This document shows, one piece after another, positions 6,055 through 43,350 of a stretch of 44,188 nt of DNA. The notes under the pieces are model-generated. The model saw only the letters and a program-made list of their open reading frames with translations, had not been told where the DNA came from and did no database searches. How positions within the stretch are numbered: the first letter of the stretch is position 1; the number at the start of each line of letters is the position of its first letter. Source of the DNA: a virus (Duplodnaviria; Heunggongvirae; Uroviricota; Caudoviricetes). A program made the translations under genes and the position numbers. The stretch lies in IMG/VR virus record IMGVR_UViG_3300045988_019982; one strand, given 5' to 3'.

Positions 6055-6995
6055 ACTATTACAACGAATGGGATAAAGGCGCAGCCGCGTGGCTGCGTGA
6101 ATTAATAAAACAGGGCCACATACCTTTTGGAGTTGTAGATGAAAGAAGCATTACCGAAGTTAAGCCAGAAGACCTTGACGGGTTCACCCAGTGTCATTTT
6201 TTCGCTGGCATCGGCGGCTGGCCTCTCGCGCTCAGACTTGCGGGAGTTTCGGAAGATACGCCTCTCTGGACGGGAAGCCCGCCTTGCCAACCGTTTAGCG
6301 CGGCAGGAAAACAACTCGGACAGTTCGACCCGAGACACCTCGCGCCAGTCTTCCTCGACCTCATCAGCGAGTGCCACCCTCCAGTCCTCTTTGGGGAACA
6401 GGTTGCGCCAGCAATTGCAAAATCGTGGATGTGCGATTTACAAACTCACCTGGAAGGAGAAGACTACGCCGTCGGGTTTGCCGTACTCCCAGCTTGTAGC
6501 GTCGGCGCTCCGCACAAAAGAGAACGACTCTTCTTTGGTGCGTACCAACTGGCCTGCACCGACAGCGAACGATTACAAAGGGAGCGGAGAGACTGTTATC
6601 CGCAAGGACGGGAAGGACAGAACATTCGACAGGCTGGACTACTCAACGGAACAGGGGCTAAAACTGACGAATTGGCCCACCCCTCGCAGTTCGGATGGGG
6701 AAAAGAACGTGAGAACACTAGAGGGGGCGCTATCGGAGATTCAGAGGAAGGGTGGGCCTCAAGACGTGGCACAAGCGGCGGCGATAACACAACTAATTCG
6801 CATCACGGCTTCTGGTCAGATGCTGACTGGCTCGGATGCCGGGATGGAAAGTTCCGGCCAGTTGAACCCGACACATTCCCGCTGGCTAATGGGATACCCG
6901 CCAGAGTGGGACGATTGCGCGGTTACGGCAATGCCATCGTCCCGCAAGTAGCCGCCGAATTTATAAAGGCGTTTATGGGGGCCGTAAATGAGTAA
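6051..6995 (+). CDS. DNA (cytosine-5)-methyltransferase, possibly frame-disrupted
   Basis: Motif I FFAGIGG, IV SPPCQPFSAAGK, VI FGEQV, VIII HKRERLFFG, X GYGNAIVPQVAAEFI in this frame; central third is low-complexity while frame +1 (6541-6951) reads like a real domain. Confidence 0.65.
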   Translation: MNYYNEWDKGAAAWLRELIKQGHIPFGVVDERSITEVKPEDLDGFTQCHFFAGIGGWPLALRLAGVSEDTPLWTGSPPCQPFSAAGKQLGQFDPRHLAPVFLDLISECHPPVLFGEQVAPAIAKSWMCDLQTHLEGEDYAVGFAVLPACSVGAPHKRERLFFGAYQLACTDSERLQRERRDCYPQGREGQNIRQAGLLNGTGAKTDELAHPSQFGWGKERENTRGGAIGDSEEGWASRRGTSGGDNTTNSHHGFWSDADWLGCRDGKFRPVEPDTFPLANGIPARVGRLRGYGNAIVPQVAAEFIKAFMGAVNE

Positions 6996-8412
6996 GTTTC
7001 AAAGGCGCGAATACCAGAAGCTCATGACTTCGTTCATGCTGCAACATCCGCGCTGTAATATTTGGGCGAGCATGGGCGCCGGGAAGACCGGCAGCGTACT
7101 GTGGACATTAAACCGACTGTTCCGCAACGGCCAACTTAATGATGACGACCGCGTGTTAATACTCGCCCCGCTGCGCGTTGCGTCCGGCACATGGCCCGCA
7201 GAACAAGAGAAATGGCAATTCCCATGCCTGAATGTCGTCGATGCTACCGGTTCAGAGAAGCGCCGCATCACGGCGCTGGAGTCAGACGCCAATGTGATTT
7301 GCATCAACTACGAGGTCATAGACTGGCTTATTGACTATTACGGCGTGGATGACTGGCCATTTACTGTAATAGTCAACGATGAAAGCACGAAATTGAAATC
7401 ATATCGTAGCCGTTCCGGGGGGAGCAAGCGGGCTAAGGCACTTAGTAAAGTAGCATTCAGAAATGTTAAGAGGTTGATAAACCTTACTGGTACGCCATCG
7501 CCAAACGGCCTCAAGGATTTGTGGGGCCAGAACTGGTTTATAGACGCTGGCGAGCGACTTGGTTCTTCGTACACGGCATTCACCGACCGCTGGTTTAACT
7601 CGGTACAGAAGGGCAAATCAGCTATGGCGCGCGAGTACCACGCCCGCCCTGGCGCAGATAACGAGATTCACCAGAAGATGAAGGATATTAGTCTCACTAT
7701 TGACGCTGCCGAGTGGTTCGGCTGTGAAGCGCCGATTATCGTTCCTGTTGAAATCGACCTGCCGAAGAAAGCACGTCAGGCGTACATTGATATGGAGGAG
7801 AAGTTATTCGCGGAACTGGAGAGCGGGGAAGTTGAAGCGGCTAATGCAGCAGCGAAGACGTCGAAGTGTTTGCAGATTGCCTCTGGTGCCGTGTATGTAT
7901 CGGGGCCAGACGGTGAAGCAACCAAAGACTGGGAGAAAGTGCACGACACGAAACTGGATGCGCTCGAGTCGATTGTTGAGGAGTTACAGGGCGCTCCGTT
8001 ACTGGTGGCCTATCAGTTTAAGCACGAACTGGAACGTATCCTTAAGCGTTTCCCACAAGCTCAGGCGTTTGCCAAAGGTGCGAAGGGCAATAAGCAGATG
8101 GAGGCGTGGAACCGTGGCGAAATACCTATGCTCCTGATACACCCCGCCTCCGCAGGCCACGGGCTGTCGCTACAACACGGCGGGCACCACATGGCCTTTA
8201 TGAGTCAGGGGTGGAACCTGGAACATTATCTGCAGGTTATCGAGCGTATAGGCCCAGTAAGGCAGATGCAATCTGGGTATAAACGGTCTGTATTCATTTA
8301 TCAAATAATAGCCCGAGATACTCTTGATGAAGTTGTTGCCGCGCGTACCGACGAGAAAAGGTCCGTACAGGACGAACTACTTAATTATATGAAGCGCAGA
8401 GGTAAGAAATGA
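6988..8412 (+). CDS. superfamily 2 ATP-dependent helicase
   Basis: 474 aa; Walker A ASMGAGKTGS; box II VIVNDESTKLK; ATG overlaps MTase stop. Confidence 0.75.
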   Translation: MSKFQRREYQKLMTSFMLQHPRCNIWASMGAGKTGSVLWTLNRLFRNGQLNDDDRVLILAPLRVASGTWPAEQEKWQFPCLNVVDATGSEKRRITALESDANVICINYEVIDWLIDYYGVDDWPFTVIVNDESTKLKSYRSRSGGSKRAKALSKVAFRNVKRLINLTGTPSPNGLKDLWGQNWFIDAGERLGSSYTAFTDRWFNSVQKGKSAMAREYHARPGADNEIHQKMKDISLTIDAAEWFGCEAPIIVPVEIDLPKKARQAYIDMEEKLFAELESGEVEAANAAAKTSKCLQIASGAVYVSGPDGEATKDWEKVHDTKLDALESIVEELQGAPLLVAYQFKHELERILKRFPQAQAFAKGAKGNKQMEAWNRGEIPMLLIHPASAGHGLSLQHGGHHMAFMSQGWNLEHYLQVIERIGPVRQMQSGYKRSVFIYQIIARDTLDEVVAARTDEKRSVQDELLNYMKRRGKK

Positions 8413-8550: not shown

Positions 8551-8577
8551 AAGGCCCCGTTATGGGGCCTTAGTTTT
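8551..8577. terminator. bidirectional rho-independent terminator between convergent units
   Basis: agaaaaGGCCCCgttaTGGGGCCttagtttt; A-run upstream and T-run downstream. Confidence 0.7.
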
Positions 8578-8584
8578 ATGATGG

Positions 8585-10570
8585 TTATCTAAGCCATTGG
8601 CTTGGTTTTTGTTTCAGTATATGTATCGCCCCTTGCCCAGAAGCTGCGGATTGCGCAGTTGATAACGTCACGATGTAGGTATTCCCTACTGTTCTTGGTT
8701 GAGTAAGGTTAAATTGGAAAGGGGAGCCAGTGCAGGTGATGTATTCAATCCCTGAGTCAGAAGTAACCTGAAATTCTGTTGATACCACACTACCGGAAGA
8801 AATAGATACATGAATCGCTATCTCACCCCCCGTATATACAAAAGGTATGCTTGGCGTATTTGAAAAATCCTTAAAGTTAAGCATTGCCGTTGAACTAATG
8901 ACCTCTTTGCCAACGTCATTAGTTAGCTGAGCAGGTTTAACGTAATCATAAGGGTTGAGAACGTAATAGTTTACGAAATTTACAAAACTTGAAGACGCCT
9001 TTGAAGAACTATGCCATGTTTTTTTATTGTCTATACGGTATATGGATCGGATGTTGAGAAACTCACTTGCCGTTGCTCTTTGCAGTATACCAGTCCCTAT
9101 GCCAAAATGGATATTACCGACGTCAAATACGTGGTCCTCGACATTTCCTGTAGTTGATAATATCGCAATATCAGGCTCTGCACTATCTTCAAGCGCTTCA
9201 CTGCATTTTTCGAAGTACATAGAACCAACAGACCAACTAACAGCGTTAACAGTAGCTAAACCAGCGCCTGCTGTGGTTTCAGCTATTAATGTTCCTATTC
9301 TCGATGCCAGTCCTTGCCCGAGAGTGACACCGGCGCCTATGAGCTGTGGGGTTAAAGATGATGAATACGGGTCATACCCATAGGACAAAGATTTTGATGT
9401 GTTATACGCAGCGACGACACCAAATTCAACACCATTAACGTTTACATCTCCGGTTTCACCGGAGAAACCATGTGCCAAAGATACACCTCTTGCACAATCA
9501 ATCGCCATATATTGGTTTACTTTATGATACCAACTCCCAAGAAGTACAATTCCAACTTCTGTGGCATTATAAGCATATATAATGTCTGTGACAGATTCTG
9601 CAACTACACCAAAACCATAAAAACCGTAAGGCGCAACATTGTTAGCATCAATATTTAATGTGCCAACGTGCCTAATTCCACGAACTTGTTGTTCAGGCAA
9701 TGAAAGGTCTGGGGATGTTCCTACTGGTTTTTTGCTGGCGCGAACTACAGCCTTTCCGCCCCATGAGTAGCCACTCATCGCTTTAATAGTTGCGCCGTTT
9801 GTCTCCATCACTAAATATGACGGGATAACAACTTCATCGCTAACAAAATAAGTAGCACCAGCAGTGAGTCGTAAAAATCCAGTCGCTATTGCCTTGTTAA
9901 TGGCGTCAAGGCAGTCATGCGTACTGTTATTTACAACCGCCCCGAAATTCTCGGGTGTATTCTCGTCAAACCCATTCAGTTTACCTACGTTAGACCAAGC
10001 GGAATCAGGGGCCGAGCCGTAGGAGAACGGCAATACGCCAGTATATCTGTACCAAAAGCCGTCGGCGTCGCCCACAACGTCGTATTTAGTACCTACAGAC
10101 CCGCTGTCGGAAAACTTACCAACTTTTTTGTATAAGGATAAGTTGCCGTTGTCGGGTAGTGAGTACCCGCGCCATGATTGCAAGTCGATGCGTAAATCTG
10201 GGTCTGTCTGCGGTTTCCAGTCAGCGTTTCCTACCGGGTTAAAGCCCGCTGGAACGGTAACAGGTAGTGCACCCGCATACGAGTACCACGTTTTACTCAC
10301 AGGGTCATAAACCACTTTGTCGCGGTCGGCTGTTGTCAGCGTGCCACCGGTGGAAAAGTCCCACGATACAGGAGAAAAGCCAGCATCACGTAACACGGCC
10401 GGGAGTGTCTTCTGCGTCTGTCCGGTAACAGGGTTGGTCGCGTAGTCAATATCAGCATCGCCAGCGACACCGCCGGATTTACCGGTGATAACCTCGGCTT
10501 CAAAAATCTGGTGTTTCTTGGCGGTTTGTAAATCCGCCAGGCTTAAAACGTCACCGCATCCGCTTGACAT
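8585..10570 (-). CDS. tailspike / receptor-binding tail fibre protein
   Basis: 661 aa, last gene of tail operon; ATG with AAGAGGA SD; Gly/Ser/Thr/Asn-rich repetitive central region (beta-helix fold not shown). Confidence 0.7.
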   Translation of the reverse strand: MSSGCGDVLSLADLQTAKKHQIFEAEVITGKSGGVAGDADIDYATNPVTGQTQKTLPAVLRDAGFSPVSWDFSTGGTLTTADRDKVVYDPVSKTWYSYAGALPVTVPAGFNPVGNADWKPQTDPDLRIDLQSWRGYSLPDNGNLSLYKKVGKFSDSGSVGTKYDVVGDADGFWYRYTGVLPFSYGSAPDSAWSNVGKLNGFDENTPENFGAVVNNSTHDCLDAINKAIATGFLRLTAGATYFVSDEVVIPSYLVMETNGATIKAMSGYSWGGKAVVRASKKPVGTSPDLSLPEQQVRGIRHVGTLNIDANNVAPYGFYGFGVVAESVTDIIYAYNATEVGIVLLGSWYHKVNQYMAIDCARGVSLAHGFSGETGDVNVNGVEFGVVAAYNTSKSLSYGYDPYSSSLTPQLIGAGVTLGQGLASRIGTLIAETTAGAGLATVNAVSWSVGSMYFEKCSEALEDSAEPDIAILSTTGNVEDHVFDVGNIHFGIGTGILQRATASEFLNIRSIYRIDNKKTWHSSSKASSSFVNFVNYYVLNPYDYVKPAQLTNDVGKEVISSTAMLNFKDFSNTPSIPFVYTGGEIAIHVSISSGSVVSTEFQVTSDSGIEYITCTGSPFQFNLTQPRTVGNTYIVTLSTAQSAASGQGAIHILKQKPSQWLR

Positions 10571-17715: not shown

Positions 17716-17745
17716 TTGCACACCCCAATATAATAGGGTACTATT
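17716..17745 (+). promoter_or_regulatory. promoter copy A (TTGCAC-N17-TACTAT) with AATAG-ggta-CTATT inverted repeat
   Basis: ttgcacaccccaatataatagggtactattcacc; 19/19 identical core (ataatagggtactattca) with copy B. Confidence 0.6.
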
Positions 17746-17769
17746 CACCTGTAACTTACTGAGGAAATA

Positions 17770-18099
17770 ATGATGCGTAAATTAGTATTAGCTCTGGGGT
17801 TTATGTCTTTTGCTGCTTTTGGGTCCCCGTGTGAACAGGTATTTAGTGAATCGGTTCTTATGACTTCTGGTGTGCTTGAGAAAGCCGACCCTACTATTGT
17901 AAAGGCATTTAAGGACTCTACCGTTCGCGAGTGTGAGGCCGCCGTAGAGGTTGGTAAATCTGGCCTACCTCCGCAAGCCGTAACATACTCGGTAATACGT
18001 TCGGTAGAGAAAAACGGAGACGCGTTTTACAGCCTACTGACCGCCACTCGTCTGCAAATGGTAATGACTGGGTGGGCGATAGGCGCGGAAAGTAAATAG
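17770..18099 (+). CDS. secreted/periplasmic small protein (signal peptide)
   Basis: MMRKLVLALGFMSFAAFGSPCEQ...; GAGGAAATA SD; first gene of the opposite-strand cassette. Confidence 0.55.
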   Translation: MMRKLVLALGFMSFAAFGSPCEQVFSESVLMTSGVLEKADPTIVKAFKDSTVRECEAAVEVGKSGLPPQAVTYSVIRSVEKNGDAFYSLLTATRLQMVMTGWAIGAESK

Positions 18100-18164
18100 T
18101 CGCCTTTATTTAAAGGAATGCACTGTGGTTAAATAGGACAAATCCTAAACACGAGGAAGTAAGC

Positions 18165-19295
18165 ATGGCCCGGAAGAAAATAACCGACGAACAGTTACAG
18201 GAAGAATTGAACGCCGGAATGAAGAATATCGATATAGCCCGTAAATACGGCATCTCAGACCGCGTTATTCGTATCCGTAAAGCGAAGCTGGCTAAGAAAG
18301 GCGTGGGCCACGGGCGCGACGTTAGCCACCTTGTCCCGGACGGCTACAAGATTAAAGGGACGTCGTCTCTGGTAGACGAGTTCGGCAACACTAAGTTGCA
18401 ATGGGTTAAGACAGACACCGACGCTGAACGTCAGGTCGAGTTGATGAAAGCCGTGATTGAAGGCATGAAGTCAGAGATTACGCCAGTTGCGCCGGCTAAA
18501 GCGACTCGAGCCAAACGCGACGACAAGCTACTCAATCTTTACACGGTATCTGATTTCCATCTCGGTATGCTTGCCTGGGCCGACGAGAGCGGCGACGACT
18601 GGGATATAAAGATTGCGGAAGACCTGTTCTCTCGTTGGTTCGACGCGGCGTTTCAGAAAGCACCGGATGCAGGAACAGGAGTTATTAACCTGCTGGGTGA
18701 TTTCGCGCACTTCGATAGCCTGGATGCCGTTACCCCTGAGTCGCGCCATGTGTTAGACGCAGACACTCGCTACCAGAAACTTGTCCGCTACATGATTCGT
18801 ATGGTCCGCCGTGTTGTTGATATGGCGCTGGTTAAACATAAAACCGTCCGCTTGCTTATCGTGCAAGGGAACCACGACCCTGTAGGGTCTGTATGGCTGG
18901 CGGAAATGTTCACGACTTTATACTCAAACGACAGCCGAGTGATTGTTGACACGTCGCCGGATGTTTACAAGATGGTGCAGCACGGCAAAACGACGCTGTT
19001 CTTCCATCACGGGCATAAAGCACGCTTCGACGCTATCGAACCGGTTATGATTGCCAAGTTCCGCAAAGCGTTCGGGGAGAGTGTCTATAGCTACGCCCAC
19101 GTAGGCCACCTGCACCACCAGAAGATTGTAGAAAGCCGTAACATGATTGTTGAGCAACACCGCACCTTAGCGGCTAAAGACGCATACGCCTCCCGCGGCG
19201 GATGGATGTCAGGCCGCAGTGCAAATGTGATTACTTATAGCGCCGAATATGGCGAGGTCGCACGTTTAACCATTTCTCCGGAGATGCTGGGATGA
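18165..19295 (+). CDS. calcineurin-like metallophosphoesterase with basic, possibly DNA-binding, N-terminal segment
   Basis: N-term IDIARKYGISDRVIRIRKAKL; phosphoesterase motifs LGDFAHFD, QGNHD, FHHGH, VGHLHH. Confidence 0.65.
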   Translation: MARKKITDEQLQEELNAGMKNIDIARKYGISDRVIRIRKAKLAKKGVGHGRDVSHLVPDGYKIKGTSSLVDEFGNTKLQWVKTDTDAERQVELMKAVIEGMKSEITPVAPAKATRAKRDDKLLNLYTVSDFHLGMLAWADESGDDWDIKIAEDLFSRWFDAAFQKAPDAGTGVINLLGDFAHFDSLDAVTPESRHVLDADTRYQKLVRYMIRMVRRVVDMALVKHKTVRLLIVQGNHDPVGSVWLAEMFTTLYSNDSRVIVDTSPDVYKMVQHGKTTLFFHHGHKARFDAIEPVMIAKFRKAFGESVYSYAHVGHLHHQKIVESRNMIVEQHRTLAAKDAYASRGGWMSGRSANVITYSAEYGEVARLTISPEMLG

Positions 19296-19777
19296 AAGAT
19301 ATTGTAATTTTCGATTTAGATGGGACATTGGCGGATGGTACACATCGTTTACACCTGCTGCCGAAAGATAACTACAACGAAACATGGGCGTGGAAGCCAT
19401 TTAACATGGCGTGCAAAGATGATGAGCCAATTAGAGATAATATCGAACTATGTAACGCCCTTAATCGGCGATACGCCGTTATTATTTTAACCGGTCGCAG
19501 TGATGACGCAGAAAAAGAAACCAGAATGTGGTTGCAGCGCCACCGCGTCGAATTTTATCAGCTAATCATGCGCAGCAAACACGACAACAGAAAAGACATC
19601 GTAATTAAAGAAGAGGTGTTGCGCGCTATCGGGCTGGAAAGAATCTTGTGTGCGTTCGATGATTCTCCGGCGGTAATTAAGCACTTCCGTGCCCTCGGCC
19701 TAACAACACACGCAGTCACCGAATATGACTGCAACGGGACCTCTACACACGTAAAACCACACGGGAGCGATAAATAA
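19292..19777 (+). CDS. HAD-superfamily phosphatase
   Basis: Motif I IVIFDLDGTL; motif II IILTGR; later FDDS; ATGA overlap with upstream gene. Confidence 0.65.
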   Translation: MKDIVIFDLDGTLADGTHRLHLLPKDNYNETWAWKPFNMACKDDEPIRDNIELCNALNRRYAVIILTGRSDDAEKETRMWLQRHRVEFYQLIMRSKHDNRKDIVIKEEVLRAIGLERILCAFDDSPAVIKHFRALGLTTHAVTEYDCNGTSTHVKPHGSDK

Positions 19778-20331
19778 TGGCTAAGGTAATTATTCTTAAT
19801 GGCCCGGCGGGTTGTGGGAAAGACACACTCGCTATGGCGCTGGTAGAAATGGGCTTTGCGAAGGGAACCGCCAGTTTCAAGAATCCAATGTTCAATATTG
19901 CTTTGGCAGCGTTGGGCCCGGATGCTTACCGCGAATTTCTCGACGGCTACGACGACCGGGCGCGGAAAGAAAGGCCAGAGGGTTTCCTTAATGGGCTGTC
20001 TCGCCGCCAGTTCATGATTGCCATTTCTGAGCAATTCATTAAACCAGTATTCGGCGATGATTATTTCGGTAAGTATCTTGCAGGAAACTTGCCCGACGGC
20101 GACGAAGTTTTTGTAGTGTCCGACGGTGGGTTCGCCAGCGAAGTAGCCCCTATCGTCGCCGCAGGTCATGATGTAAGAATCGTTCGCTTGCACCGAGACG
20201 GCTATACGTTTGACGGGGATAGCCGCGGTTACCTGTACGATGTTGGTGGTGATGAAGATTATGATGTATACATCATACCCGGTGACGTTAAATCTAACGT
20301 TATAGACATTGCTCTAAAATTAGGCTTGTAA
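19777..20331 (+). CDS. P-loop nucleotide/polynucleotide kinase
   Basis: Walker A ILNGPAGCGKDT near N-terminus; 184 aa; start overlaps HAD stop. Confidence 0.65.
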   Translation: MAKVIILNGPAGCGKDTLAMALVEMGFAKGTASFKNPMFNIALAALGPDAYREFLDGYDDRARKERPEGFLNGLSRRQFMIAISEQFIKPVFGDDYFGKYLAGNLPDGDEVFVVSDGGFASEVAPIVAAGHDVRIVRLHRDGYTFDGDSRGYLYDVGGDEDYDVYIIPGDVKSNVIDIALKLGL

Positions 20332-20336
20332 GAAAA

Positions 20337-20361
20337 AGGCCCCGGAAGGGGCCTTAGTTTT
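20337..20361. terminator. bidirectional rho-independent terminator
   Basis: aaaaAGGCCCCggaaGGGGCCTtagtttt; hairpin near-identical to 8551 and 27688. Confidence 0.7.
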
Positions 20362-26590: not shown

Positions 26591-26854
26591 CTATTCCAGA
26601 ATATTCCTCACGTAATCCTGCAACATGAACACTTTCAGCCTCAGTTGCCGTACACATTCGGCGTTCTGAACGTCGATAGCTAAATCCTCGTCCGCGTCTC
26701 TACTTGGCTGCGCCAGTTTGCAAGGCGGCTGCATCATCGTCGTATCCGGGGATGGAATTGGCGTTTGCGACGGCGCGGGACTTGAGCAGGACGCGAGCAT
26801 CGTCGAAAGTGCACACGCTGCGACCAGGCGTTTTAATATACTTAACGACTTCAC
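26591..26854 (-). CDS. o-spanin (Rz1-like lipoprotein)
   Basis: Lipobox MLASC after ~22-aa signal, Pro-rich mature part; overlaps i-spanin in another frame; GTG start. Confidence 0.55.
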   Translation of the reverse strand: MKSLSILKRLVAACALSTMLASCSSPAPSQTPIPSPDTTMMQPPCKLAQPSRDADEDLAIDVQNAECVRQLRLKVFMLQDYVRNILE

Positions 26855-27086
26855 GGGTAATCACCTCTGATTTCGTCTTACCTTCGTTGTCAGCGGCTGC
26901 GGCCTTTGATTCGTCCTGCTGCTGCCGTTGTGCTTTCTTCGCTAACTCAGTCTGTGCTTTCTGTTGTTGCTGAGAAACGAGATTCGCCCGACCTTCGTTC
27001 CAGCCGCTGCGGTATTGAAAGTAGCCGTGTGCGTATAACAGGATGATGAAACATGCCCCCGCTACGACAGTTGCTTTAAGATTCAT
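26700..27086 (-). CDS. i-spanin (Rz-like)
   Basis: N-terminal TM helix (VVAGACFIILLYAHGYF), Gln-rich coiled coil; AAGGAG SD; o-spanin overlaps it. Confidence 0.65.
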   Translation of the reverse strand: MNLKATVVAGACFIILLYAHGYFQYRSGWNEGRANLVSQQQQKAQTELAKKAQRQQQDESKAAAADNEGKTKSEVITREVVKYIKTPGRSVCTFDDARVLLKSRAVANANSIPGYDDDAAALQTGAAK

Positions 27087-27310
27087 GTTTCTCCTTTCTA
27101 GATAAGTAAAGCCCCGCCGTAAAGCGGGGCGCTAGTCCTTATCATTTAAACATAGAAACGGCGTAATCTCAGTAAACCAGTTACTTTTTACACAAGCAAT
27201 AGAGTATGGCCCTTCCGAACGCGTCAGCGTAACTACACTCAGGACTTACGTCCCGCTCCGTTACCTGCCCGCGCCGCGGTCGCTTGTTCATACTTCACAA
27301 GCTCAGGTGG

Positions 27311-27353
27311 AGCTTAGCACATTTTCAGTGAAAAGTCAACTATTCGAATAGTT
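27311..27353 (-). promoter_or_regulatory. candidate spanin promoter with palindrome AACTATTCGAATAGTT
   Basis: On - strand TTGACT-N17-TAAGCT; 16-bp perfect palindrome at 27338-27353 overlaps the -35. Confidence 0.35.
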
Positions 27354-27405
27354 TATTCCAACATTTACAATTCGGTGGAATAACTGGAATAGGTAAATAA
27401 ATAGT

Positions 27406-27435
27406 TTGCAGACACCAACATAATAGGGTACTATT
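27406..27435 (+). promoter_or_regulatory. promoter copy B (TTGCAG-N17-TACTAT) with AATAG-ggta-CTATT repeat
   Basis: ttgcagacaccaacataatagggtactattca; core identical to copy A. Confidence 0.6.
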
Positions 27436-27469
27436 CATTACATCGAAACGAGAGATGAGGAATTTAAAG

Positions 27470-27682
27470 ATGAAAGAGTTAATTATCGCGGTATTGACGA
27501 CATTGGCAGTTTCACTGGTAATTGCCGCGGGTGTACGTAGCTTAGATAAACATGGGTGCGAGAACTACGGAGATATCACAGGCAGAGAGGTAATGTATAG
27601 TTACGCAACTTGTTATGTAAAAACTGATAGAGGTTTTATCCCTCGTGAAGAACTTAATTTTAGAGCAGCGACACATAAATAA
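27470..27682 (+). CDS. small membrane-anchored protein, single-gene insert in head module
   Basis: MKELIIAVLTTLAVSLVIAAGV (signal/TM) then Cys-containing domain; own promoter and terminator; opposite strand to flanking head genes. Confidence 0.55.
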   Translation: MKELIIAVLTTLAVSLVIAAGVRSLDKHGCENYGDITGREVMYSYATCYVKTDRGFIPREELNFRAATHK

Positions 27683-27687
27683 AACTA

Positions 27688-27705
27688 AGGCCCCGTTTGG
27701 GGCCT
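27688..27705. terminator. bidirectional terminator hairpin
   Basis: AAGGCCCCgtttGGGGCCTT; same hairpin family as 8551 and 20337. Confidence 0.65.
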
Positions 27706-27709
27706 TCTA

Positions 27710-28171
27710 TCATTCTGGCTTAGTAACCTTCGCCGCTTTGCTTACCGCCTCTACGCCGCCGGCATCGGTAACTTTAACGAAGTATTCGCCAACCGCGTTA
27801 ACCGTCAGAGACAAAGCCTCTTCTGGTGCGTTTACAACTTCCTTCCCGTCTTTGTACCAGGTCAGCGCATATGGAGCTTTACCGGCCTTAACTTCGACAG
27901 TGATAGTTGCGCTGCCGTCTGCCAGTTCAGCGTCTTTCGGTTGCACAGAGAAATACACGTCTCCAGCGTCCGCCAGATACGGAATTTCGTAAAGCATACC
28001 CGCCGCGGGGAGCGCAATACCGGTTTTATCCGCAAACGGCATATCGTCTACTGAGGTACCCAGTACACTTTCGTCCTCAATAAACGCCACGTTCTCGCCA
28101 GAGCCAGACACGCGAGCATACTGGACTACGCGACGCGACGGTACATCAGTTACTTTGAAAAAGCCCATCAT
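27710..28171 (-). CDS. head-associated protein with Ig-like C-terminal domain
   Basis: 153 aa; C-terminal ATITVEVKAGKAPYALTWYKDGKEV...EYFVKVTDAGG. Confidence 0.45.
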   Translation of the reverse strand: MMGFFKVTDVPSRRVVQYARVSGSGENVAFIEDESVLGTSVDDMPFADKTGIALPAAGMLYEIPYLADAGDVYFSVQPKDAELADGSATITVEVKAGKAPYALTWYKDGKEVVNAPEEALSLTVNAVGEYFVKVTDAGGVEAVSKAAKVTKPE

Positions 28172-29247: not shown

Positions 29248-29283
29248 ACTATAAGAAAGCCCCTTTCGGGGCTATATGCGGAC

Positions 29284-35251: not shown

Positions 35252-35740
35252 TCAACCTTTCACCGCGCGCCCGATAGCCTCAGCCTCTTGCCACGGTTTA
35301 CCGTCGAACAGCGCCAGACGCCCCGCGGTACGGCGACGCAGACCGAGTAATGGTTTGCCGTTCTGGTTGATGAACAGCGCCAGCTTAGCCCGCAGCGTCG
35401 CAATATCACCGGAGCGCAGCGCCTTACCAGTTCCGGTAGTAGTGGCAATCACACCAGCACCTGCGTTGTACACCAGGTCGCACACAGCGTCGAACTGTGC
35501 CTGTGTCAGGGAGTGGTGCGCTGCTGCGTCAACCGCAGCGACGGCCTTAGCCATGTCGCGGTTCAGTAACAGGAGGCCTTGTCCGGGAGTGATGGTCTTA
35601 CCTGGGGTTACGTCGGGTCCGTAGTGACCGTAACCTATCGTCAGGTACTTCTCGTTTGGTGTAGCACGATACGCAGTTCCACGGAACCCCTCAAACGCAG
35701 CACAGAAATGCAATCCATTATCTGAAATGTTTCGAGACAC
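35252..35740 (-). CDS. endolysin, GH24-type lysozyme
   Basis: FEGFRGTAYRATPNEKYLTIGYGHYG and LTQAQFDAVCDLVYNAGAG resemble T4-lysozyme-family motifs; GTG start at 35740 with GGAGGA SD (track start 35791 is TTG). Confidence 0.75.
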   Translation of the reverse strand: MSRNISDNGLHFCAAFEGFRGTAYRATPNEKYLTIGYGHYGPDVTPGKTITPGQGLLLLNRDMAKAVAAVDAAAHHSLTQAQFDAVCDLVYNAGAGVIATTTGTGKALRSGDIATLRAKLALFINQNGKPLLGLRRRTAGRLALFDGKPWQEAEAIGRAVKG

Positions 35741-35990
35741 GCTTATGTCCTCCGTATGACAGCCACGCCTGACGAATCTGACGCAGCGCAACCAATGTGA
35801 TTAATGTCTCAGGCAGCGTGGGTGACATGCTGCCCTGTAACAGGTGGATACATCCGGCGGCGCAGACGATAGCAGTCAGGATATAGAGCACCCGACCAAA
35901 TAGCCCGTCGTCCACGCTGGGATGATACACATTAAACAGCGATGTGCCTCCGATTGCCAGCATACCGCCGAACCAGAATAACTCATTCAT
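35718..35990 (-). CDS. holin-like membrane protein 2 (possible antiholin)
   Basis: ATG at 35990 overlaps holin stop; hydrophobic MNELFWFGGMLAIGGTSLF...VLYILTAIVCAAGCIHLL. Confidence 0.5.
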   Translation of the reverse strand: MNELFWFGGMLAIGGTSLFNVYHPSVDDGLFGRVLYILTAIVCAAGCIHLLQGSMSPTLPETLITLVALRQIRQAWLSYGGHKRVSKHFR

Positions 35991-38040: not shown

Positions 38041-38072
38041 TGAATAGTAGCCTATTCTATCTTAGTGTGCAA
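38041..38072 (-). promoter_or_regulatory. promoter copy C (TTGCAC-N17-TACTAT), - strand, with GAATAG-tagc-CTATTC repeat
   Basis: Reverse complement ttgcacactaagatagaataggctactattca. Confidence 0.6.
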
Positions 38073-39638: not shown

Positions 39639-39670
39639 TGAATAGTATCCTATTATGCTGGGGCGTGCAA
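39639..39670 (-). promoter_or_regulatory. promoter copy D (TTGCAC-N17-TACTAT), - strand, with GAATAG-tatc-CTATT repeat
   Basis: Reverse complement ttgcacgccccagcataataggatactattca. Confidence 0.6.
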
Positions 39671-43032: not shown

Positions 43033-43051
43033 AAGGGGCGTTAAGCCCCTT
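43033..43051. terminator. bidirectional terminator between convergent genes
   Basis: aAGGGGCgttaaGCCCCTt flanked by A-run and T-rich tail. Confidence 0.6.
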
Positions 43052-43256
43052 CACCGAACGCCAGCCACTTGGCGTCTACTTGCAGCACTTCCGCCAGTTT
43101 AAACAGCGTTGCCGGTCGGACGTCCTGAGTTACCCCGAGTGCCAGTTGGTTAATCGCGCCCTGAGAAACACCAGCCAGAACAGCCAGACGGCGCTGGGAG
43201 AGGCCTAGCTCTTTACGGCGTTGTTCTACACGGATGCCTAGTTCAGATGGTTGCAT
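43041..43256 (-). CDS. Cro/XRE-family HTH transcriptional regulator
   Basis: 71 aa; LGLSQRRLAVLAGVSQGAINQLALG HTH; AAGGAG SD; own upstream region carries the TACTAT/GAATAG element. Confidence 0.7.
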   Translation of the reverse strand: MQPSELGIRVEQRRKELGLSQRRLAVLAGVSQGAINQLALGVTQDVRPATLFKLAEVLQVDAKWLAFGEGA

Positions 43257-43283: not shown

Positions 43284-43316
43284 GTGAATAGTACCATATT
43301 AATTATTTTAGAAAAG
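43284..43316 (-). promoter_or_regulatory. promoter of the Cro-like gene with operator-like GAATAG-tacc-ATATT
   Basis: - strand TACTAT -10 about 30 nt upstream of the ATG; weak -35. Confidence 0.4.
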
Positions 43317-43320
43317 CCCA

Positions 43321-43350
43321 TTGACAACATGAATAGTTCGCTATTATAGT
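43321..43350 (+). promoter_or_regulatory. divergent rightward promoter (TTGACA-N18-TATAGT) with GAATAG-ttcg-CTATT in spacer
   Basis: ttgacaacatgaatagttcgctattatagt. Confidence 0.5.

Follow-up and report, generated by a model that had tools for sequence, protein, structure and literature searches.

The window, by which we mean the whole 44,188-nt stretch of DNA analyzed, is a near-complete genome of a Kagunavirus-like (Guernseyvirinae) siphophage, a virulent phage of E. coli. Its large ORFs encode a DNA polymerase, a primase-helicase, a helicase, an exonuclease, a methyltransferase, and a tailspike, and a 71-aa HTH protein is encoded at 43041 to 43256; no tRNA or tmRNA genes were found in it. 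The unit studied here occupies positions 27406 to 27706 of the + strand, antisense to the spanin and head genes, and consists of a promoter-like motif (TTGCAG-17-TACTAT), a leader with GAGGAA, a 70-aa ORF, and a GC-rich hairpin. It is flanked by the i-spanin gene (26700 to 27086, − strand; PHROG 2536, E 1e-54) and a gene encoding a Hoc-like head decoration protein (27710 to 28171, − strand; PHROG 3945, E 6e-85), confirming an initial annotation, made from the sequence alone, that described a single-gene insert lying on the opposite strand between spanin and head genes. Every element which that annotation had placed between 27406 and 27706 is present there, and chance explains none of them.

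Upstream of the unit, a conserved left flank ends in GGAATAACTGGAATA (27377 to 27391, + strand), common to relatives in which the site is empty and those in which it is occupied: in either case the relatives are alike up to GGAATAACTGGAATA and diverge directly beyond it. The window contains a single exact copy of GGAATAACTGGAATA. Folding of the conserved left flank gave no significant indication of a structured RNA (z-score −1.68), and we dismissed a noncoding RNA in the region from 26900 to 27900 because an Rfam search at E values up to 1 returned two sub-threshold chance matches only.

Promoter-like element, leader, and terminator

The promoter-like element (27406 to 27434, + strand) has a −35 hexamer, TTGCAG (27406 to 27411), and a −10 hexamer, TACTAT (27429 to 27434), separated by a 17-nt spacer; a 5-bp inverted repeat, AATAG-N4-CTATT, overlaps the −10. 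The motif resembles the sigma-70 consensus only weakly (score of ∼7-8/12), and a generic promoter scan made no call at it; we infer promoter activity from repetition and position. The 29-mer at 27406 to 27434 matches that at 17716 to 17744 at 26 of 29 positions (0 expected by chance), and its 18-nt core, ATAATAGGGTACTATTCA (27420 to 27437), has an identical copy at 17730, as expected from the earlier claim that this promoter copy shares its core with the one at 17716. Four further copies of ATAATAGGGTACTATTCA, with at most 2 mismatches, bring the total to six, where again none is expected by chance; core search and alignment place the family members at 17716 and 27406 on the + strand and at 38058, 39656, 43302, and 43347 on the − strand. 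The fBC-Eco01 paper suggested a phage-RNA-polymerase promoter for the same motif, a reading that we do not adopt because no RNA polymerase is found among the large ORFs of the window. We propose that host RNA polymerase would start at this phage-typical, sigma-70-type promoter, one of the six-copy family, and produce a ∼270-nt monocistronic mRNA ending at the GC-rich hairpin.

The sister promoter copy (17716 to 17747, + strand) heads a four-gene + strand cassette (17770 to 20331) within the tail genes, which encodes a 109-aa protein (PHROG 14165, unknown function), an exonuclease, a polynucleotide kinase, and a dNMP kinase. The N terminus of the 109-aa protein resembles a signal peptide.

Between the promoter-like element and the gene lies a 5′ leader (27438 to 27469, + strand), whose Shine-Dalgarno sequence, GAGGAA (27457 to 27462), is 7 nt ahead of the ATG; related AACGAGAG leaders sit behind the promoter copies at 38058 and 39656. 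The coding sequence of 70 aa, taken from the ORF list, runs from 27470 to 27682 on the + strand (PHROG 26710). We place the start codon at 27470 because an upstream in-frame ATG, at 27455, reads ATA in the closest relatives. Pairwise dN/dS between this ORF and four homologues is 0.10 to 0.38, indicative of purifying selection; judged by these ratios and by the existence of 102 clusters of distant relatives, the 70-aa protein is a real gene product. The cassette has a GC content of 39.7%, ∼13 points lower than that of the spanin, Hoc-like, and head-morphogenesis genes (52.6 to 53.6%), and GC3 is 32.9% in the ORF compared with 51.9% in the Hoc-like gene.

The unit closes with the hairpin AAGGCCCC-GTTT-GGGGCCTT (27687 to 27706, both strands), which has an 8-bp stem and was identified by a − strand terminator scan and by fold energy: ΔG is −15.5 kcal/mol (z −3.3) for the + strand and −16.1 kcal/mol (z −3.6) for the − strand. 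Of its two T-tracts, that of the − strand (AGTTTTATTT) is the better one; on the + strand (CTATCATT), the tract 3′ of the hairpin is poor or imperfect (TTCTATCATT). The hairpin therefore appears to be a bidirectional terminator, common to the cassette and the Hoc-like gene, and may also stop the oncoming head-gene transcript. A sister hairpin, AAGGCCCC-GGAA-GGGGCCTT (20336 to 20355; ΔG −19.8 kcal/mol, z −4.25), closes the 17716 cassette. The AAGGCCCC/GGGGCCTT stem thus recurs in the window, at 20336 and at 8551, in keeping with the initial annotation of a terminator belonging to a shared family.

Cargo exchange at fixed slots

We compared the interval between the spanin and Hoc-like genes (slot 1) in 37 relatives, a presence/absence check that had been proposed together with the annotation. 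Slot 1 is empty in 10 of them, where it measures 317 to 343 bp and contains the conserved flank and a hairpin without the promoter, and occupied in the other 27. Across the occupied slots, promoter and terminator stay the same and the cargo varies: there are at least 11 unrelated types, among them a DNA methyltransferase, an Endo VII-like nuclease, a clamp-like protein, a lipoprotein, and several small uncharacterized proteins. Of the 27 occupied relatives, 26 have the promoter motif, at slot position ∼320, and all 10 empty ones lack it; the AAGGCCCC stem closes nearly all of the occupied slots sampled, and a hairpin of the AGCCCCTTTCGGGGCT type marks slot 1 where it is empty. The 70-aa cargo is present in only 3 of the 37 slots and, at the DNA level, in 1 of 181 GenBank relatives (EC3-1).

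A second slot, between the head-morphogenesis gene and the portal gene, is empty in the window, with only the hairpin AGCCCCTTTCGGGGCT (29258 to 29273). Slot 2 was measurable in 29 relatives: 23 have it empty and 6 expanded, 5 of the latter with the promoter core. The relatives L056 and L057 carry in slot 2 a 76%-identical homologue of the 70-aa protein (P0005) with the same promoter, leader, and terminator; the leader, ATCGAAACGAGAG...AAGGAATTTAAAG, accompanies the gene into this slot. Two further cargoes (57 aa and 173 aa) were found in both slots 1 and 2. Between the window gene and its L056 counterpart, dS is 0.70, whereas promoter and leader are nearly identical: the regulatory ends have changed far less than the synonymous sites within the ORF. 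Salmonella phages have a 52%-identical homologue, located between their scaffold and spanin genes.

Cargoes are thus exchanged at these slots. That the same ends enclose different cargoes, and that the same cargo occurs in two slots, points to recombination at short shared sequences as the mechanism of exchange; the promoter-plus-leader and the hairpin would be the portable ends at which cargo is swapped. Taken together, the mix of empty and occupied slots, the at least 11 cargoes, and the copy in slot 2 argue for an exchanged, moron-type cassette resembling the promoter-early stem-loop (PeSL) cassettes described below. From its architecture, we assign the unit with great confidence to the horizontally acquired, moron-type cassettes, and we consider it very likely that the slot between the spanin and Hoc-like genes is exchangeable. 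The moron arrangement postulated at the outset is therefore borne out, by the 10 empty slots among 37, the foreign GC content, the alternative cargoes, and the use of a second slot in other phages.

An ancestral gene at slot 1, with the empty and refilled slots produced by deletion and replacement and a cassette that is not mobile as a unit, seems to us very unlikely. In the distant Guernseyvirinae phage phiEap-2, a 48.6%-identical homologue occupies this position, which could mean long residence, but the promoter sequence there differs. The ancestral reading also sits poorly with a gene whose GC content is 13 points below that of its neighbors, with the presence of the promoter-leader-ORF-terminator unit in another slot in L056 and L057, and with a cargo confined to 3 of 37 slots and 1 of 181 GenBank relatives.

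Our preferred reading, an acquired and exchanged cassette, has precedents in two systems. In the passages of PMC3594210 that summarize Juhala et al. (2000), gene 15 of the HK97 tail operon is the moron prototype, and its product, gp15, is an inner-membrane superinfection-exclusion protein. As in the lambdoid morons, we find an extra gene with a putative promoter of its own upstream and a terminator downstream, inserted between structural genes that are adjacent in relatives, with deviant base composition and a product that appears to be a small inner-membrane protein (HK97 gp15 was compared by description). Unlike those morons, the cassette belongs to a virulent phage, and so cannot serve expression from a repressed prophage; its promoter is a copy from the phage's own family rather than a foreign one, and its slot is multiallelic (at least 11 cargoes). 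For the relative fBC-Eco01, the paper on that phage likewise lists neither an integrase nor lysogeny genes.

The second precedent is the PeSL cassettes of T4-type phages (Arbiol et al. 2010, PMC2839356; Comeau et al. 2014, PMC4122927). There, too, repeated sigma-70-like promoters and GC-rich stem-loops flank small nonessential ORFs, and, between regulatory motifs that are conserved, the ORF has been inserted, deleted, or replaced in one close relative compared with another. PeSL stem-loops shield neighboring late genes from read-through (PMC2839356, PMC4122927), a further likeness to the hairpin described here. In our phage, a 44-kb siphovirus, we find the repeated promoter motif and the swapped ORF but not the fused promoter/stem-loop motif: the cargo stands between the promoter and the hairpin, the latter 250 nt downstream, and the two do not form a composite intergenic motif. 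Moreover, the present slots are few, fixed, and antisense inside a structural operon, whereas PeSL cassettes form hyperplastic regions.

The 70-aa protein and its family

The 70-aa protein has an N-terminal transmembrane helix (residues ∼5 to 22) followed by a domain containing C30 and C48 and the motif YGDITGREV...CYVKTDRGFIP...RAATH. It matches PHROG 26710 (E 2e-11, residues 6 to 66), PHROG 18961 (E 7e-8), and PHROG 27356 (E 1.5e-7), all without an assigned function, so that these matches provide a family name, not an explanation. A word-indexed homologue search reached 21 proteins; a profile search found 102 related clusters at 50% identity, all of 67 to 112 aa. Pfam (E up to 1), NCBIfam, and PADLOC each yielded 0 families, and a PDB sequence profile search gave nothing below E 0.09; in the Pfam, NCBIfam, PADLOC, and PDB searches, we saw no similarity to known exclusion, lysis, or defense proteins or folds. 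By eye, 'CE..G.REV' bears a likeness to Hok; a Hok/Gef-like toxin was dropped as a candidate because there are 0 Pfam matches.

An AF2 model built on a 101-sequence alignment (pLDDT 94) predicts helix at residues 2 to 37, strands at 41 to 44, 47 to 52, and 55 to 58, and a second helix at 59 to 68, that is, a small alpha-beta3-alpha domain. No fold match was found among solved structures, and the structural neighbors in BFVD are uncharacterized members of the family only (from phiEap-2, Acinetobacter ZZ1, Salmonella 9NA, Titan-X, and others).

The initial annotation described an N-terminal hydrophobic anchor or signal and a Cys-containing domain, which we can sharpen to an uncleaved anchor. The hydrophobic helix is found family-wide (mean Kyte-Doolittle 2.7 over the best 18-residue window). 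A cleaved signal peptide is unlikely: residues 2 to 37 form one continuous helix in the model, the AAG/VRS region that might provide a signal peptidase site (AAG|V) lacks conservation among homologues, and N-terminal tails that are long and charged occur in many of them. The charge bias around the helix is neutral in the 70-aa protein itself (1 K/R before, 2 after); in the 31 family members with N-terminal tails of at least 12 aa, the tail has more K+R than the linker after the transmembrane segment in 24 and never fewer. We think it quite probable that the protein is anchored uncleaved in the inner membrane, N-in/C-out, with a periplasmic domain.

C30 is conserved in 100 of 101 family members and C48 in all 101, with exactly two domain cysteines in 99 of 101, and from this conservation alone the two probably form a disulfide. 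The product would then be an inner-membrane protein of 70 aa whose uncleaved anchor carries a ∼45-residue periplasmic alpha-beta3-alpha domain stapled by C30-C48. A motif comprising TGRE, CYVKT, G[FW]IP, and RAxTNE is nearly invariant among phages of Escherichia, Salmonella, Enterobacter, and Acinetobacter, and all homologue-bearing phage records that name a host name a Gram-negative one.

Homologues occur in early or replication settings: they are found in a lambdoid nin region, beside RecT, behind a primase, and in the early region of Dhillonvirus; in a T4-type phage, the gene lies between regA and gene 43. A search for family context with a 9-sequence subset led to 4 IMG/VR loci. No conserved partner gene was found in the neighborhoods of family members. 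The lambdoid homologue, as a nin-region gene, would be expressed lytically and not from the prophage, unlike classical moron-encoded exclusion genes.

Possible roles and significance

Recurrence of the motif across phages of four host genera suggests that the protein binds a conserved envelope component; this would take place through the conserved surface motif, on the periplasmic side of the inner membrane, while the phage grows lytically. It is likely that the protein acts in the periplasm on the cell envelope. Our best specific guess, a reasonable but doubtful one, is superinfection exclusion, with DNA entry or cell-wall penetration blocked in the manner of T4 Imm or Sp, put forward by analogy: like T4 Imm (Imm_superinfect, PF14373) and Sp, which are small envelope proteins made during lytic growth by virulent phages, the 70-aa protein is small and presumably envelope bound, but it is without a Pfam match and combines one transmembrane helix with a beta-containing periplasmic domain.

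Circumstantial support for exclusion or host modification comes from the sister Kagunaviruses Golestan and EC3-1, in which a Pfam Imm_superinfect gene (51 bits; cutoff 27.9) lies behind the same promoter type. No Imm homologue was found in the window, and we considered whether the 70-aa gene substitutes for Imm functionally; since EC3-1 carries both genes, they do not replace each other. A Kagunavirus time-course paper (PMC12645636) places the Imm-type gene in the latest-peaking class, so expression of the cassette may not be early.

The protein might instead serve the phage's own cycle as a periplasmic regulator, through antiholin-like lysis timing or peptidoglycan/envelope remodeling, and act by binding a conserved envelope protein of host or phage. 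The gene adjoins spanin genes in the window, in phiEap-2, and in the Salmonella phages, three lineages of Guernseyvirinae; its nin-region location in lambdoid phages implies lytic-phase expression; and a periplasmic motif conserved across phage genera points to a target that is itself conserved and not to a rapidly evolving protein of a rival phage. We nonetheless find this role unlikely: in slot 2, Dhillonvirus, T4-type phages, and marine phages, the gene is not near lysis genes; in the window, the endolysin gene (35252 to 35791) is 8 kb off; neither a Pfam or PHROG family annotated as lysis nor the fold of a solved structure was matched; and the gene can be dispensed with, as most relatives lack it.

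Such variable, strain-specific presence is also the usual pattern for counter-defense genes, and the other cargoes of the slot include a DNA methyltransferase (typical of counter-defense) and DNA-handling enzymes. A factor directed against a membrane-associated immunity system of the host or a prophage is nevertheless improbable in our judgment, given that neither PADLOC nor any other library returned a match and that the data hold no linkage to a particular host background. Known anti-defense proteins are mostly cytoplasmic, and a conserved periplasmic domain would be unusual among them.

On balance, we lean toward a composite explanation in which a self-contained, acquired cassette with portable ends encodes an anchored periplasmic product whose role we guess to be exclusion. 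A broader reading is offered as a tentative suggestion that falls short of a favored conclusion: the Guernseyvirinae may run their own PeSL-like gene shuffling, and the 70-aa cargo may be the first noticed member of a widespread class of mini-proteins. The handles would be a portable promoter-plus-leader and a GC-rich hairpin, which move accessory genes by recombination among at least three fixed antisense slots (spanin/Hoc-like, head morphogenesis/portal, and tail chaperone/minor tail). The class would consist of uncharacterized, disulfide-stapled periplasmic mini-proteins that act on a conserved envelope target and are made in lytic growth by Guernseyvirinae, Dhillonvirus, T4-type Acinetobacter phages, and lambdoid phages with such genes in their nin regions.

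Morons and promoter/stem-loop cassettes are already known, and no new principle is involved here. The cargo family, about a hundred protein clusters, spans several unrelated phage groups and has a confidently predicted fold. According to the BASEL paper, Kagunaviruses are small, common, glycan-dependent coliphages that are now being adopted as candidates for therapy and as chassis for engineering. For such engineering, the slots are useful as natural, bounded insertion sites with promoter, leader, and terminator, which accept cargo from 33 aa to several genes; for the biology of the group, they show where Kagunaviruses keep their strain-specific accessory genes.

The cassette and its regulatory ends

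The 70-aa ORF (27470-27682, + strand) is flanked by the i-spanin gene (26700-27086, − strand) and the Hoc-like head-decoration gene (27710-28171, − strand), with GAGGAA 7 nt 5′ of its ATG at 27470. A longer frame from ATG 27455 lacks support because the same codon reads ATA in the nearest relatives. The promoter-like motif upstream (27406-27434, + strand; TTGCAG-17 nt-TACTAT) is identical to the copy at 17716 at 26 of 29 positions, and the two share an 18-nt core, ATAATAGGGTACTATTCA. Four further core copies with ≤2 mismatches lie on the − strand at 38058, 39656, 43302, and 43347, giving a six-copy family (17730-17747, 27420-27437, 38041-38058, 39639-39656, 43285-43302, and 43330-43347); shuffled sequence yielded no comparable match to the 29-mer or core. 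The motif agrees with the σ70 consensus at only 7 to 8 of 12 positions and was missed by a generic promoter scan. A.AATAG...ACTATTCA is invariant in all six copies, and AATAG-N4-CTATT forms a short inverted repeat over the −10 hexamer; a tandem pair of copies lies upstream of a gene for a 71-aa helix-turn-helix regulator (43041-43256, − strand), for which the motif could double as operator. PHIRE had found the same repeated motif in phage fBC-Eco01, in a paper that credited it to a phage RNA polymerase. Because the window's large ORFs (DNA polymerase, primase-helicase, helicase, exonuclease, methyltransferase, tailspike, and endolysin) include no RNA polymerase, we read the motif as a putative host-polymerase promoter.

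At the other end of the cassette, the hairpin AAGGCCCC-GTTT-GGGGCCTT (27687-27706, both strands) has folding energies of −15.5 kcal/mol (+ strand) and −16.1 kcal/mol (− strand), both far below those of shuffles. Its T-tract is stronger on the − strand than on the + strand, so it terminates the Hoc-like gene at least as much as the cassette. The stem recurs at 20336, closing the cassette that begins at 17716, and at 8551; the latter hairpin (8551-8571) separates the convergent helicase (6988-8412, + strand) and tailspike (8585-10570, − strand) genes, which shows that the phage uses the AAGGCCCC-loop-GGGGCCTT family generally as its bidirectional terminator. The initial annotation had given the gene its own promoter copy, shared with 17716, and a terminator of the same family, and both elements are present.

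Empty and occupied slots in related phages

The window has about the length of a complete genome of the Kagunavirus-like group (44,188 bp; Escherichia phage EC3-1, 44,405 bp) and contains no tRNA genes. The 651 bases around the cassette match 181 GenBank phage records, nearly all of them from Escherichia and Salmonella siphophages of the Guernseyvirinae (Kagunavirus and Jerseyvirus). Only one, EC3-1, spans these bases from end to end (94.6% identity); in the remaining records both flanks align and the middle does not. We fetched 36 IMG/VR loci via the spanin protein, added EC3-1, fBC-Eco01, and the window, and excised the spanin-to-Hoc interval (slot 1) from the 37 loci with both genes.

Slot 1 is empty in 10 of 37 loci (317 to 343 bp): a conserved flank ending in GGAATAACTGGAATA is followed at once by a hairpin, which is AAAAAGCCCC-loop-GGGGCTT in nine and of the AAGGCCCC type in the most distant locus, L040. 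The promoter motif is absent from all 10 empty slots. Of the 27 occupied slots, 26 carry it after the flank, at slot position ∼320, and L031 has a diverged copy. In the 13 occupied slots that we read, a leader of ∼30 nt with a ribosome-binding site and the cargo follow, and then AAACTAAGGCCCC-loop-GGGGCCTT. At least 11 unrelated kinds of cargo were found: a 33-aa transmembrane (TM) peptide; ORFs of 57, 67, 70 (the window gene), 81, 83, and 94 aa; a 114-aa lipoprotein with a TM peptide on each side; a 173-aa clamp-like protein; a 179-aa Endo VII-like nuclease; and a 242-aa DNA methyltransferase. The 70-aa cargo occupies three of these 37 slots (window, EC3-1, and L032). The empty slots, together with a cassette GC content of 39.7% (GC3, 32.9%) versus 52.6 to 53.6% in the neighbours, bear out the earlier description of the gene as an insert.

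The lipoprotein set, found in fBC-Eco01 and an IMG/VR relative (L005, 1861-2385, and L018), consists of three ORFs: a 33-aa TM peptide, the 114-aa protein (PHROG 13472, unknown function), which has a lipobox (LSGC) and hydrophobic segments in its C-terminal part, and a 25-aa TM peptide. The set is a further candidate for an envelope or exclusion module in slot 1. In phage phiEap-2, a 24-nt inverted repeat, TTATTCGTGGAATAACTGGAATAA/TTATTCCAGTTATTCCTGGTATAA (locus L002, 2917-2940 and 3242-3265; 88% complementary, 301 nt apart), brackets the homologous cassette and contains the GGAATAACTGGAATA junction motif; the window has no right-hand copy of this repeat type.

The 305-nt noncoding stretch from the spanin start to the cassette (27087-27391) is 91 to 98% identical in 35 of 36 relatives, including those with empty slots. 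Within it are GGAATAA repeats, a perfect palindrome, ACTATTCGAATAGT (27339-27352), and, just ∼25 nt upstream of the start codon of the i-spanin gene, a terminator hairpin on the − strand (27111-27130). In the fBC-Eco01 record, the corresponding stretch is annotated with two host promoters predicted on the − strand. The flank may serve the spanin-scaffold-capsid genes as an internal promoter or as a regulatory leader; its z-score for RNA folding is only −1.68.

A homologue with 76% identity, P0005, lies elsewhere in L056 and L057, between a Mu-F-like head-morphogenesis gene and the portal gene (slot 2), and its unit shares promoter (TTGCAGACACCAATATAATAGGGTACTATTCA), leader (ATCGAAACGAGAGATAAGGAATTTAAAG-ATG), and hairpin type with the window cassette; slot 1 is empty in L056 and holds a different ORF in L057. 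Slot 2 is empty in the window (29248-29283), with a hairpin, AGCCCCTTTCGGGGCT (29258-29273), of the type seen in empty slot 1 elsewhere. In 23 of 29 measurable relatives slot 2 is likewise empty; in the other 6 it is expanded, 5 of them with the promoter core. Its cargoes include members of the 70-aa ORF family, ORFs of 59 and 61 aa, and a unit of three genes. Both the 57-aa and the 173-aa cargoes occur in either slot. Salmonella phages carry a 52%-identical homologue between the scaffold and spanin genes, with a near-consensus TTGACA-17-TAATAT promoter, and slot 1 of phiEap-2 contains one with 48.6% identity and yet another promoter. By these sequence comparisons, the cassette travels as one unit. 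The window gene has diverged from its L056 counterpart to dS = 0.70, but the promoters and leaders of the two units remain almost identical, pointing either to strong selection on the regulatory ends or to uniformity through recombination with other copies.

A second cassette (17716-20355, + strand), with the same promoter and terminator types, lies inside the − strand tail genes. It encodes a 109-aa protein (PHROG 14165, unknown function) with a signal-peptide-like N terminus, a DNA repair exonuclease, a polynucleotide kinase, and a dNMP kinase; EC3-1 has an HNH endonuclease and a hypothetical ORF instead of the two kinases.

A family of small, probably anchored proteins

The 70-aa gene is under clear purifying selection (dN/dS, 0.10 to 0.38). 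Among close homologues, changes cluster in the hydrophobic segment and residues 30 to 70 are almost invariant. An exhaustive profile search yielded 102 clusters at 50% identity, all of 67 to 112 aa, built as a hydrophobic helix followed by C-x2-Y-[GS]-x2-T-G-R-E-[TV]-x-[YF]-x4-C-Y-V-K-T-x2-G-[FW]-[IV]-P-x2-E-x3-R-A-x-T-N-E. The two domain cysteines are conserved in 100/101 and 101/101 members, and 99 of 101 have exactly two in the domain, in keeping with the proposed Cys-containing domain. AlphaFold2 on the 101-sequence alignment predicted a helix (2-37), strands (41-44, 47-52, and 55-58), and a second helix (59-68) with a pLDDT of 94. The protein has no match in the curated families of Pfam, NCBIfam, and PADLOC, nor among solved structures by sequence or fold; structurally it neighbours only members of its own family, all of them uncharacterised phage proteins, and it matches PHROGs 26710, 18961, and 27356, whose functions are unknown.

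The window protein shows a neutral charge balance around the helix; among the 31 homologues whose N-terminal tail has ≥12 aa, K+R in the tail exceed those in the post-helix linker in 24 and are fewer in none. From this tail excess, the conserved pair of cysteines, and the fact that all named carriers infect Gram-negative bacteria, we infer that the anchor is uncleaved, in an N-in/C-out orientation, and that the domain is periplasmic and probably disulfide bonded. The putative periplasmic surface is conserved in phages of several genera, which argues for a conserved component of the envelope as its target.

In other lineages homologues lie among early or replication genes, not in prophage-expressed positions: in the early/replication block of Dhillonvirus, after helicase, methyltransferase, and HNH endonuclease genes; between regA and gene 43 in T4-type Acinetobacter phages; in the nin region of lambdoid phages, after replication genes (O and P in L045; a DnaB-like helicase in L061 and L062) and upstream of NinF/NinG-type genes; between a DUF3799 gene and RecT in a marine phage; and directly after primase in another phage. 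No conserved partner gene was found beside family members, although nonhomologous small membrane proteins often follow them.

Possible function and relation to known systems

Superinfection exclusion, suggested in the initial annotation, ranks first among the functions considered, as a tentative reading. Its support is circumstantial: sister Kagunaviruses use the same type of promoter for a gene whose product matches Pfam Imm_superinfect (51 bits), and other cargoes of slot 1 include a lipoprotein and TM peptides. EC3-1 carries the Imm-type and 70-aa genes together, which counts against simple equivalence, and we found no likeness of the 70-aa protein to known exclusion proteins. A phage-intrinsic role in the envelope or in lysis timing ranks second and is rather unlikely; a counter-defence role, third, appears more doubtful still. 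In Golestan and EC3-1 the Imm_superinfect gene is the first gene of the cassette equivalent to that at 17716; the window has no Imm homologue. The single Kagunavirus time-course found placed the Imm-type gene in the latest-peaking class, with a sampling (5 to 120 min, in three broad periods) too coarse to fix its timing (PMC12645636).

Like morons, the cassette has its own promoter, its own terminator, an insertion between genes adjacent in relatives, and deviant composition, which are all the testable features of that class; prophage expression does not apply to this virulent phage. It also works like the promoter-early stem-loop (PeSL) cassettes of T4-type phages, but its promoter and hairpin lie at opposite ends of the cargo rather than forming a composite promoter/stem-loop, and we therefore do not file it as a PeSL; its slots also differ, being a few fixed sites inside a structural operon. 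The 70-aa gene (annotated as a hypothetical protein in EC3-1) and the repeated motif (in fBC-Eco01) were already known. We consider the cassette finding real and tidy, and of moderate interest: what is new is the delineation of the 70-aa protein family and, for the Kagunavirus-like phages, the picture of a multi-allelic, multi-slot cassette.
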